Origin: Fibrobacteria bacterium
Lineage (GTDB): Bacteria; Fibrobacterota; Chitinivibrionia; Chitinivibrionales; FEN-1185
Length of the DNA stretch: 55,870 nucleotides
Assembly (NCBI GenBank): GCA_037447435.1
Contig: JBBIGR010000036.1
Location: 1-55,870, forward strand
Reading direction: 5' to 3'
Translations under genes and position numbers: made by a program
The notes under the pieces: generated by a model
The model's input: the letters and a program-made list of their open reading frames with translations, nothing else
The model's database searches: none
What the model was told of the DNA's origin: nothing
Shown: piece after piece, positions 46,050 through 49,830 of the stretch
How the letters are laid out: the number at the start of each line of letters is the position of its first letter
Numbering within the stretch: position 1 is the first letter of the stretch

Positions 46050-47162
46050 CTATTGCCTTTCCCAAGCGGAAATGCCGAGGTCTTTAAACAGGTTGACGGC
46101 TTGTTGCGCGATAGCTTTACTTTCGAATGAAAGCCTGATGGTTCCCGCATCGTTTTCCCGTACCTTGAGCACTTCGATATCTTTAATGTTAATATTTACT
46201 TTTGCACATGCGTTGGCCAAATTCGCTATCATGCCGGGCTGGTCTTTCACCACGACAAAAACATCGGAAAGCGGCCGGATAAAACCCTTATTGAAAGACG
46301 AGATGCCCGAGCGCGTTTGCGCGGCCGAATCGAACGCATTTCCCAGTGTCTCGGAATCCAAGCGGCTTTTCATTTCCGACATCATGGCAATGAATTCATC
46401 GATGATGGGACCGATCTCATTTTTGTTGGTTGCCAAAATATCGTGCCACATGGCATAAGGGGCCGAGGCGATACGGGTCATGTCGCGAAATCCGCCAGCA
46501 GCCAGGGTGAGCGTCCCCGAAATACGTTCGTTTATTTTTGCCGCAAGGTTAACGAGTGCAACTGCGAGCAAATGCGGAACATGGCTAACGGTTGCCGCTA
46601 TCGTATCGTGAACATTCGGGTCCAAAACCACATGCCTGCAGCCGAGGTTTTTCTCGAGAAACTCGGAGAAGTCTTCAAGCCTTTTGGCGGAAACGCCCGA
46701 TTGCGGAGTAACTACGTAAATCGCATTTTGAAATAAATAGGGGTCTGCGGCCGACGGCCCGTGTTTCTCGGAACCGGCCATAGGATGTCCGCCGATGAAG
46801 TCCACATTTTCAGGTAAAAACCTGTTCGCACAGTCCATGATTTGCGCCTTGGTGCTGCCGACATCGGATATGATGCAGCCGTTTTCGGAAAATTTCATGG
46901 TACCGAGGCGTTTGATGGTTTCCATAATGGTAAATATCGGCGAACATAAAAAAAGACAATCGGTACGGGGCAACACCCGTTCGAGTTCGTCGTAGCCGTA
47001 TCCTTCGTCAATGCATTTGAGCGCCAAGGCCGTTTTTATGGCAGCCGGGGACGACAAACCGATGATTCTCCCCGCGTATCCCGACGCTTTCAAAGCCAGC
47101 CCCAAAGAACCGCCGAGCAGGCCGACGCTGTAAATGGTAATTACTTTTGGAGAATATGTCAT
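46050..47162 (-). CDS. tyrA: Prephenate dehydrogenase with ACT domain
   Basis: GLLGGS, DVGSTK, GGHPMAGSE, HD....VSH.PH and GFRDMTRIA, plus a C-terminal ACT domain (DQPG.IA). Confidence 0.95.
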   Translation of the reverse strand: MTYSPKVITIYSVGLLGGSLGLALKASGYAGRIIGLSSPAAIKTALALKCIDEGYGYDELERVLPRTDCLFLCSPIFTIMETIKRLGTMKFSENGCIISDVGSTKAQIMDCANRFLPENVDFIGGHPMAGSEKHGPSAADPYLFQNAIYVVTPQSGVSAKRLEDFSEFLEKNLGCRHVVLDPNVHDTIAATVSHVPHLLAVALVNLAAKINERISGTLTLAAGGFRDMTRIASAPYAMWHDILATNKNEIGPIIDEFIAMMSEMKSRLDSETLGNAFDSAAQTRSGISSFNKGFIRPLSDVFVVVKDQPGMIANLANACAKVNINIKDIEVLKVRENDAGTIRLSFESKAIAQQAVNLFKDLGISAWERQ

Positions 47163-47917
47163 AACCGAAGGTTCCTTGAATCAAGCCGCCCCAGCAGATA
47201 CCGCACTTCGCCTTCTTTAGTCAAAGGAATCACGTAGTCGCGGTAAAAAAGCTCAATGATGCGGGGATCAACGACATGACGGATATCGGCATTGACCCGT
47301 TTTTGACATTGCGCGACCTTTTCCCGGATCCGAGCCATGATTTTTTCCTCGACTTCTTTTCTTGTCAGAAGAGCAAGAAGCCCTTGTTTGTTTTTTGCGT
47401 TGATGAGATCGCCGTATTGTTTTTTTCCCGACAAATATTTGCTTTCCGCAACATACAGCGAGCCATAGTGGATACGTCTGGCTATCGCCTGTAAAGCATA
47501 TACATCATGCTCGACGCTGGAACCGAAATGACCGTCATCGCCGCGACGACAGATTTTAGGTAAAATAAGCGAATATGCCTGAAGGATTTTGTCCCCCAGA
47601 TTTATCGCATTGCTGTTTCGTAAGTACAGCCCGGTCGACGGGATGGAAAGCTTGCGGCGCGCTTTCGGAAGCCGGCTGCAAAACGGACGTTCCTCGGGCA
47701 GCAAAAATCGGCCGAATAAAGCATCCATTTTCTCCTGATGACGAAGACGTAAAGAAAACAAACTTTCGTCATGGGCGCCGTCGAAGCCGCTTTTGCCTTT
47801 TTCATATGCTTGCGGATTATGCTTAAATTGTGCCCTGTCTATCAATTTAAAGATAATCGTTTCCTCCAGGCTTTCGAGCGTCTCCGCAATTTTCACGAGA
47901 TTAAACGTATTGTTCAT
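47159..47917 (-). CDS. Chorismate mutase, yeast Aro7/plant type
   Basis: LEETIIF.LIDRAQF, GRF..PEERPF, GDD..FGSS, LQAI.RRIHYG..VAE.K and IPLTK..EV.YL. Confidence 0.88.
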   Translation of the reverse strand: MNNTFNLVKIAETLESLEETIIFKLIDRAQFKHNPQAYEKGKSGFDGAHDESLFSLRLRHQEKMDALFGRFLLPEERPFCSRLPKARRKLSIPSTGLYLRNSNAINLGDKILQAYSLILPKICRRGDDGHFGSSVEHDVYALQAIARRIHYGSLYVAESKYLSGKKQYGDLINAKNKQGLLALLTRKEVEEKIMARIREKVAQCQKRVNADIRHVVDPRIIELFYRDYVIPLTKEGEVRYLLGRLDSRNLRL

Positions 47918-48048
47918 GAAATAATTGTTCCAAGATGGGTCGGTAACTTTTATAAAGACTCCAATCAAAATAATAGATTTGCTGTTTTTATATTATATTT
48001 AAATAGTATGAAAAGGCACTTTGCGCTTTAAAATCCGAGGAGACTTCC

Positions 48049-48819
48049 ATGAAAAAATTGCTTGTGCTCGTTGTCCTCGCTGCATGCGTTGTTGTTTTTT
48101 CCAAGTCTGCCCCTCCAACCGGCCCCTTGGCAACCGTAGACAGTGAAGAATTTGATGCCGGGACCATAAAGGCCGGCGGTACCGGAATTCTTAAACATGC
48201 ATTTAAAATTAAAAATACCGGAGACAGCGTCCTTGTCATCCGGGATGTGAGGCCTGGTTGAGGATGCACCGTGGTCGGTTTCGACACGACCATCCTTCCC
48301 GGTCGGGAAGGCTCAATTACCGAAGAAGTTAATATCGCAAAAATTCACGGCGGAGCATTTACAAAATGCGCCACCGTCACTTGCAATGCGAAAAACAAGT
48401 CCGAATTCAGGCTTTGTCTGAAAGGTGTTGCCAAAGAAGCGTTACACGTCAACCCTCAATACATTGCCTTGAAAAAAGCCGAGGGCAAAAACCAATACGA
48501 GACGGATTTGCTTTTATCGTCGGAAAAATCGGACCTTGTTGTCAAAAATGTATCGTTCGTATCGAATTCGCAGCCGCAGTCGCTACCCGCAGGGCAAAAC
48601 ACCTGGCAAAATAAATTGCCGGTGTATTGCAACTTTACGGTGAAAAAAGCTGCGAAAGCTAAGGATGACGGTGAATGGGATTATATAGTGACAATCACGA
48701 TATCTTCGGATTTTGCAGAAAATCAGAACGGTGATTTTGTGATTACGACCAATCATCCGGATGCTTTGGAAACAAAAATACCGGGTATGATCGAGGCGAG
48801 CACCACTATAAAGAAGTAA
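48049..48819 (+). CDS. Secreted DUF1573 (Ig-like) protein, probable selenoprotein (Sec71 at TGA 48259-48261)
   Basis: ORFs 48049..48261 and 48271..48819 share a frame. Read-through gives F.I.NTG...L.I.DVRPG-U-GCT...I.PG..G, a continuous DUF1573 signature of 256 aa. GAGGAG RBS and signal peptide. Confidence 0.8.
48270..48293 (+). promoter_or_regulatory. Putative bacterial SECIS hairpin
   Basis: cgt(g)gtcg-GTTT-cgacacg (alternatively gtggtcg/cgaccat). The apical loop starts with G after a 16-nt spacer from the TGA. Confidence 0.55.
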
Positions 48820-48842
48820 CCGAAATCCTGATTCTCGTTAAA

Positions 48843-48873
48843 AAAAAGCCGGGTGATAAAATCCCGGCTTTTT
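48843..48873 (+). terminator. Intrinsic terminator
   Basis: aaaaagccggg-N9-cccggcttttt. Confidence 0.8.
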
Positions 48874-48891
48874 CTTTAAAAAGGTATCGTG

Positions 48892-49830
48892 ATGGCTTAT
48901 AAATTTTTGTTCGGCCCGGTATTGTCCCGACGTCTTGGAATATCGCTCGGCGTCGATATCGTTTCCGCCAAGACCTGCAATCTGAATTGCGTGTATTGCG
49001 AATGCGGCGAAACATCGTGCCTTTCCGGCGAAATAACGGAACACGTGCGGATTGCCGACGTGATTGCCGAACTTCAATCGTTTTTATCAACGTCGCCAAA
49101 GCTTGACATTATAACAATAACGGGCAGCGGTGAACCCACGCTCAACAGCGGCCTCGGCGATCTCATTCATTTTTTAAAAACGCACTTTTCCCGTTATACC
49201 ACGGCGTTGCTTACCAACGGCACCCTACTGCACGATAAAGACGTTTCGGCCGCGGCGATGCAATTCGATTACGTACTCCCCTCTCTCGACGCAGTTTCCA
49301 ACAAAGCTTTTTCATTGGTAAACAGGCCGCACGGCGGCCTTTCGAACGAACAAATCATCGACGGTCTCATCGCATTTTCTCGTTTATATAAGGGGATATT
49401 GTGGCTCGAAGTCTTTATCGTACCGGGAATCAACGATTCCCCGATCGAACTGTCGCTTTTGAAACATGCTGCTGAAAAAATCAATCCGACCCGCGTGCAA
49501 TTAAACACGCTCGACCGGCCGGGCGCCGTCGACTCTATCGTACCGGCCTCCCACGACCAATTGCTTTCCATAGCGCATTTCTTCAAGCCTTTGCCCGTTG
49601 AAATCATTTCACGGCAATACCAAACCACGGGAAACGCGGCGGTAGAAGGCGACCTTCGCGCCGCGATTCTTGAAACATTGAAACGAAGGCCGCTTACCAT
49701 AGAAGACATTGCAAAGACTACCGGTCACAACATCAACGACATCACCTCGACATTGTCCCTGTTATGTCGATCGGCGGACGTTGCTTCCGAAAATGTGGGG
49801 GCGCACCGGTTTTATAAACTTACAAAGTAA
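48892..49830 (+). CDS. Radical SAM protein with a C-terminal HTH-like domain
   Basis: FGPV.SRRLG.SLGVD, CNLNCVYC, GSGEPTL, LTNG and SLDA. Confidence 0.9.
   Translation: MAYKFLFGPVLSRRLGISLGVDIVSAKTCNLNCVYCECGETSCLSGEITEHVRIADVIAELQSFLSTSPKLDIITITGSGEPTLNSGLGDLIHFLKTHFSRYTTALLTNGTLLHDKDVSAAAMQFDYVLPSLDAVSNKAFSLVNRPHGGLSNEQIIDGLIAFSRLYKGILWLEVFIVPGINDSPIELSLLKHAAEKINPTRVQLNTLDRPGAVDSIVPASHDQLLSIAHFFKPLPVEIISRQYQTTGNAAVEGDLRAAILETLKRRPLTIEDIAKTTGHNINDITSTLSLLCRSADVASENVGAHRFYKLTK

Follow-up and report, generated by a model that had tools for sequence, protein, structure and literature searches.

A probable DUF1573 selenoprotein with a two-hairpin SECIS-like element in the order Chitinivibrionales

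A DUF1573 domain-containing protein (pfam07610) with the motif UGC is listed among selenoprotein families (PMC9312934, PMC13188914), which settles a question that an earlier note on the DNA studied here had raised, and the entry traces back to a study of Olavius algarvensis symbionts in which two OS_HP2 genes were predicted in 2007 (PMC1976440). The bacterial SECIS consensus places 16-37 nt between the UGA and the apical loop, with exceptions (PMC13188914), and a paper on SelB structure puts the G of the SECIS loop about 20 nt from the UGA (PMC4605307). A 2006 survey reported FdhA or a Sec-containing SelD in every selenoproteome and proposed that these maintain the Sec trait (PMC1794560). As to what a short cysteine motif may do in the periplasm, the CxC of CsgC lies on an Ig fold and is redox-active (-139 mV; PMC3173608) and the periplasmic CGC of MauE is essential (bioRxiv 10.64898/2026.03.05.709764).

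We analysed a 55,870-nucleotide stretch of DNA (the window) from a Fibrobacteria bacterium, in which the earlier note, made from the letters, had proposed that an in-frame TGA splits a DUF1573 protein at a U-G-C motif. The frame (48049-48819, +) follows a ribosome-binding-site-like GAGGAG (48037-48042, +) and consists of 70 codons, a TGA at 48259-48261 and 185 further codons that begin GGA TGC ACC GTG, before a TAA. The TGA is codon 71 of the 256-codon frame and, translated as U, gives RPG-U-GCT at residues 68-74, with TGA-GGA-TGC (48259-48267, +) as U71-G72-C73. Translation, profile match and relatives together point to one 256-aa product with Sec at residue 71. The PF07610 profile matches the read-through protein across the TGA (E-value 4.4e-18, 65.5 bits against a gathering cut-off of 26.1) and, by a dicodon model with the genome as its training set, the coding potential on both sides of this TGA comes first among 62,730 read-through candidates in the genome, so the proposed split gene stands. 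A public contig (run X1) is identical over 47800-49100 and has TGA, not TGC or TGT, at the site, but it is a contig and not raw reads and is not independent because it is possibly the source of the same DNA. The exact 70-aa and 182-aa pieces are both present in a collection of 15 billion proteins, in which the full-length read-through form was not found, the very split by gene callers that had been predicted.

The genome (5.05 Mb, 45.6% GC, 99.6% complete) carries the whole set of Sec genes that the earlier note suggested looking for, with tRNA-Sec, selA and selB consecutive on one contig (C42) and selD on another (C53). The selA, selB and selD matches score 495, 306 and 365 bits, each over its cut-off, and tRNA-Sec scores 67.2 bits (gathering score 47). 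We compared 61 genomes of the order Chitinivibrionales, a set in which counts come from kin that are not independent and from some incomplete genomes. The protein is matched at 89 places in 58 of the 61 genomes, with a TGA inside the match at 28 places. Column 71, examined in 46 of the 89 copies, reads TGA in 27 (one per genome) and TGC or TGT in 19, which is the alternation that a Sec reading had been expected to show; at the 28th place the TGA lies elsewhere than column 71 and in the remaining copies beyond the 46 no TGA occurs inside the match. Cys73 is present in 46/46 copies and the Cys copies read C-G-C here, in line with the C-G-C-T that the earlier note gave for the family, and a DUF1573 paralog in the window genome (contig C14) also carries C-G-C. 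The TGA form is found in 27 of the 30 genomes in which selD was detected and in none of the 31 selD-negative genomes. selA was detected in 29/61 genomes and accompanies 26 of the 27 TGA forms; G001 (73% complete) has the TGA form and selD and in it selA was not found. Proteins of the TGA genomes are 30-53% identical to the window protein, and one more relative at 44% identity (L053) was left out of the tallies. Because the sel genes and tRNA-Sec are present, the TGA form tracks selD and the Cys copies carry C-G-C, we consider it very likely, indeed close to certain, that the UGA at codon 71 is decoded as Sec delivered by SelB, in agreement with the 256-aa selenoprotein first proposed.

In a tree of 45 proteins, built by a quick method with midpoint rooting and with one short row omitted, the syntenic Cys forms fall among the Sec forms, a pattern that fits several Sec-to-Cys reversions within the order. 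One Cys ortholog (L020, in G054, where selA and selD were not found) comes from a genus in which both other members have the TGA; it retains remnants of both hairpins described below with an altered GGUC loop and looks like a recent reversion.

Two features of the locus go beyond the earlier note, namely a two-hairpin SECIS-like element and a conserved downstream radical SAM gene. Hairpin 1 (48271-48293, +) starts 9 nt past the UGA and has a conserved stem with a variable loop. Hairpin 2 (48294-48311, +), likely the SelB-binding SECIS, has a 7-bp stem, a 4-nt loop beginning GG (GGUC, 48301-48304) and an energy of -11.7 kcal/mol. The GGUC loop is found in 27/27 TGA genes, always 39 nt from the UGA, and in 0/19 Cys genes. 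For a two-hairpin structure that had been drawn from these same sequences, 92.2% of cells are paired in the 27 TGA genes as against 32-54% in slid controls, two-sided changes occur at 6 of the 17 pairs, and none of 500 shuffles matches the real pairing or covariation score; RNAalifold independently yields the same two helices. Among the 19 Cys genes 52.0% of cells are paired (38.3% for hairpin 2), with covariation somewhat over shuffles (9/500 as high). The putative SECIS loop also leaves a trace in the protein sequence, where PGR stands at the hairpin in 18 of 20 C-terminal fragments beginning just after the Sec position versus 2 of 102 full-length CxC homologs.

The invariant GGUC loop on hairpin 2 is, we think, probably where SelB binds, and hairpin 1 would set the spacing. 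Under such a mechanism hairpin 1 (23 nt), folded just outside the mRNA entry of the ribosome, would shorten the distance between UGA and loop to an effective 16 nt. In the window genome hairpin 1 has, in one fold, a loop that begins with G at 16 nt from the UGA and on its own passes the standard SECIS model, so that SelB might bind there instead; the loop of hairpin 1 is not conserved across the TGA genes. In the SelW-like Sec genes of the order (12 genes) there is one hairpin only, and its (G/A)GUYU loop, which resembles GGUC, stands 21 nt from the UGA. A comparable tandem fold, its loop 32 nt away, also appears in seven Sec-type selD genes, but covariation there is almost nil (1 pair, term 0.04), which leaves this a hint. 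Sec-type selD in the order comes in two kinds (L056-L069), one with the tandem fold and one whose only hairpin, of the AGG type, lies some 20 nt from the UGA, the latter often in extra copies and possibly acquired separately. A tandem form is not described where the review treats non-conforming SECIS classes (PMC13188914), and our literature search found no tandem bacterial SECIS in titles and abstract openings and, among the papers listed, no GGUC loop; supplementary files may contain this SECIS form.

The protein is predicted to be exported. Its N-terminus (48049-48108, +) reads by eye like a signal peptide, with KK, a hydrophobic core and a terminal SKSA, and is modelled as a helix over residues 2-17; LAAC at residues 10-13 resembles a lipobox and is not kept in orthologs. 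Read from their starts the TGA forms are about 225-277 residues long with leaders that by eye are also signal-peptide-like, one copy being cut by a contig end and one having no start in the locus. An AlphaFold2 model with U as C (mean pLDDT 90.6, pTM 0.75) shows two beta-sandwich domains, of which the first is the DUF1573 (PF07610) ASH/PapD-like Ig domain (residues 29-126; 48133-48426, +), assigned by Pfam profile and structural match, and the second (about residues 130-249; 48436-48795, +) is, by alignment and model, Ig-like with no conserved Cys. Residues 70-73 lie in a loop, which joins strands 62-69 and 74-78 of the model, and across 43 aligned proteins the only invariant Cys positions are U/C71 and C73. 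Domain 1 is nearest in fold to PDB 2qsv, a Porphyromonas gingivalis protein whose function is not known (2qsv_A, Z 14.0, rmsd 1.6, 101 aligned, 19% identity), followed by ASH/PapD-like domains; sequence searches of the PDB returned nothing significant. Cys107 (48367-48369) and Cys123 (48415-48417), 36 and 52 residues after the Sec, are common to the six genomes of the genus and, lying on neighbouring strands, are a possible structural disulfide.

Against NCBIfam the sole match of the window protein is NF041425 'OS_HP2 family (seleno)protein' (72.8 bits, E-value 2.3e-20, model positions 4-96 of 98). The same model is matched by all 43 aligned members, and the window protein is not filed under it because 72.8 bits is below the 100-bit cut-off. 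From this model overlap and a shared reference we infer that OS_HP2 and the catalogued DUF1573 entry are one and the same. Our literature search found no paper joining Chitinivibrionales with selenocysteine, and supplementary files may list Fibrobacterota members. The gene is very likely a member of a known selenoprotein family, and what goes further than the published lists is the two-hairpin SECIS arrangement and a possible one-gene selenoproteome. As far as the protein itself goes this amounts to an annotation fix, gene callers having split a known selenoprotein family across a whole order.

What the U-G-C motif does is a separate matter. Thiol-disulfide exchange in the periplasm, as a reductase or isomerase, is in our judgement a somewhat probable role, proposed because of domain fusions, DsbD- and CcdA-type genes in the genome and the CsgC and MauE precedents; the Sec-Gly-Cys loop would then exchange electrons with disulfides of other envelope proteins. 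The CxC is kept in 102 of 105 homologs of full-length size among the best 150, and two distant homologs (L054, P0128) fuse DUF1573 to thioredoxin-fold domains, a redox domain being absent from the other 16 proteins scanned, which were chosen from the best 150 representatives. The first of these fusions (L054:2791-6327, +), which is from Planctomycetota and at least 1,179 residues long, combines two DUF1573 domains with five CxxC thioredoxin-fold domains. The window genome has a DsbD-type frame of 658 codons and a CcdA-type frame of 219 codons. Two other candidate partners were rejected, MauE with matches in 8/61 genomes (5 over the cut-off) and none in the window genome, and DsbB, which was not found in any of the five genomes searched, the window genome included. 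The model is an Ig sandwich, as noted above, with neither CsgC nor nDsbD among the structural matches listed; closest to it in fold are non-redox Ig domains (2qsv, ciliary ASH domains and pilus chaperones). A literature search found no periplasmic UGC selenoprotein.

We infer redox exchange ahead of two other roles for a true selenoprotein. Soft metals are readily bound by a selenol/thiol pair that is exposed, and the U-G-C motif might bind copper, mercury, silver or zinc as a periplasmic chaperone or buffer instead of catalysing disulfide chemistry. Two Cys paralogs away from the syntenic locus (L050, L051) do adjoin nikR-like genes, one of them also a fur-like gene, but the 43 aligned proteins have no invariant third ligand near the motif, a scan of 81 flanking ORFs turned up no metal transporter and the fusions that were found are to thioredoxin-fold domains, all of which makes metal binding a rather unlikely role. 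Another non-catalytic possibility is a PapD-like protein, be it a folding or assembly chaperone or an adhesin, in which the Se-S bond has a structural role or acts as a redox switch. This would suit a fold that resembles PapD-family chaperones, ASH domains and adhesin repeats, the weak match of 24 of the 43 members to the choice-of-anchor D model, and the retention of Cys orthologs in genomes without Sec machinery. On the other hand it would be costly to maintain four sel genes, a UGA and a pair of constrained hairpins for the sake of a structural bond, a CxC ring is strained, and Sec is catalytic in most characterised selenoproteins (PMC9312934); we rate this slightly lower again.

A third way to read the locus is through its neighbour, a radical SAM gene (48892-49830, +) with a weak C-terminal winged-helix match and homologs named 'wyosine synthetase (radical SAM superfamily)', for which the DUF1573 protein could be a substrate before export or a partner in a pathway. 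The radical SAM gene directly follows the DUF1573 gene, on the same strand, in all but one of the 27 TGA genomes (26; in the 27th a contig ends there) and in 10 further genomes, with intergenic gaps down to 7-21 nt in several. Against a functional link, the radical SAM gene is present in 60 of the 61 genomes of the order, so the adjacency may be inherited synteny; the pairing is kept in just 9 of 31 selD-negative genomes; the two proteins are likely in different compartments; and in the window a terminator-like hairpin (48843-48873, +; -16.8 kcal/mol) with a loop of 9 nt and runs of A and T on its flanks separates the genes. A promoter and terminator scan listed nothing above chance, its consensus loop limit of 8 leaving out this 9-nt loop. 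Given the near-universal gene and the hairpin we treat the link as unexplained synteny, and a joint function as improbable. Least probable of all is that the TGA arose by nonsense mutation or assembly error, or codes for Trp or Cys under a changed code. TGA terminates 611 of the 1,973 long ORFs of the genome, where tRNA-Sec alone among the tRNAs has a UCA anticodon, so the earlier argument against genome-wide recoding holds, and the same TGA occurs in 27 genomes, only with selD and always followed by the GGUC hairpin, which excludes a private nonsense mutation.

The surroundings of the gene vary across the order. Upstream of it many families have a divergent radical SAM gene that is spore-photoproduct-lyase-like (L021-L042 flanks), so that the DUF1573 gene sits between two radical SAM genes. 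In the window the upstream place is held by a chorismate mutase of the plant/yeast type (47159-47968, -; TIGR01802, 182.8 bits, over the cut-off), here in a bacterium, which lies upstream of prephenate dehydrogenase-like and EPSP synthase-like genes.

Whether the DUF1573 gene is the sole selenoprotein of the window genome we regard as evenly balanced. Searches for others covered about ten families together with loop and coding scans. Matches in the genome to PF00384 (1), PF00578 (4), PF02662 (1), PF00085 (8) and PF00581 (6) contain no TGA, its molybdopterin enzyme included, the genome has no match to PF13192, PF10262, PF01521 or PF00462, and a selenouridine synthase was not found in it. SelD is of the Cys type in the window genome and in all 20 further genomes in which the match lacked a TGA and the site was read. 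A scan for loops of the lineage type kept 5 of 2,995 unshadowed candidates, and only the window gene combines a strong hairpin with coding on both sides. The pattern was drawn from the control genes themselves and recovered 22/24 Sec-DUF1573 and 7/12 SelW-like controls, so a second small selenoprotein could have escaped. A SelW-like selenoprotein (PF10262), which carries the motif CxxU and whose gene has one SECIS-like hairpin, is found in 20 of 60 relatives, always with TGA and in 19 cases with selD (for example L093:4917-4979, -; also L094-L104); the exception, G038 (77% complete), has the SelW-like TGA gene and in it neither selA nor selD was found. This rules out DUF1573 as the sole selenoprotein of the whole lineage, and the claim survives for the window genome only and, possibly, G007. 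In three genomes of the same genus the SelW-like gene lies between two genes that in the window genome are only 14 bases apart (contig C12, about 72837-72852), and as they stand in mid-contig an assembly gap does not explain why the SelW-like gene is missing there. In G004 a frame (L072:1037-2416, -) has an N-terminus like that of SdhA followed by a redoxin domain in which the motif is C-G-U; it looks like a chimeric or contaminating contig.

Among the selD-positive genomes Sec-SelD occurs in 8/30 and a TGA-bearing molybdopterin enzyme in 5/30. Because 19 of the 27 TGA genomes show neither, as against the 2006 survey (PMC1794560), the order looks like an exception to the FdhA/SelD rule of Sec trait maintenance. 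It is a tentative idea, and one we hold with some doubt, that the whole Sec machinery is kept for one exported protein without a thioredoxin fold, read through a distinct tandem class of SECIS in which a 23-nt spacer hairpin is looped out, and that the Sec trait in Chitinivibrionales is anchored mainly by this protein and not by FdhA or SelD. If true, this would point to an important selenium-based redox step in the cell envelope. If this is the only selenoprotein here, the cost of the machinery must be repaid by the function of this one protein, and the DUF1573 activity is for that reason worth solving.

Set beside the catalogued DUF1573 selenoprotein (PMC9312934, PMC13188914) the window protein shares the Pfam domain, the U-G-C motif and the Sec position, and it differs from the OS_HP2 proteins of deltaproteobacterial symbionts in having a second Ig domain and in coming from an order of Fibrobacterota. 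With CsgC and nDsbD it would have in common a periplasmic Ig-like sandwich bearing a close Cys pair in a loop at one end of the fold; unlike them it is of the ASH/PapD subtype, has two domains and carries Sec in place of the first Cys, so the likeness is a functional analogy only. The two-hairpin element offers a ready test of the maximum distance between UGA and loop at which a bacterial SECIS can act, and searches restricted to 16-37 nt would miss its conserved GGUC loop. Measured against the consensus bacterial SECIS (PMC13188914, PMC4605307), hairpin 2 satisfies the rules for loop, stem and energy, whereas its GGUC loop lies at 39 nt, beyond the consensus range, with a second conserved hairpin before it.
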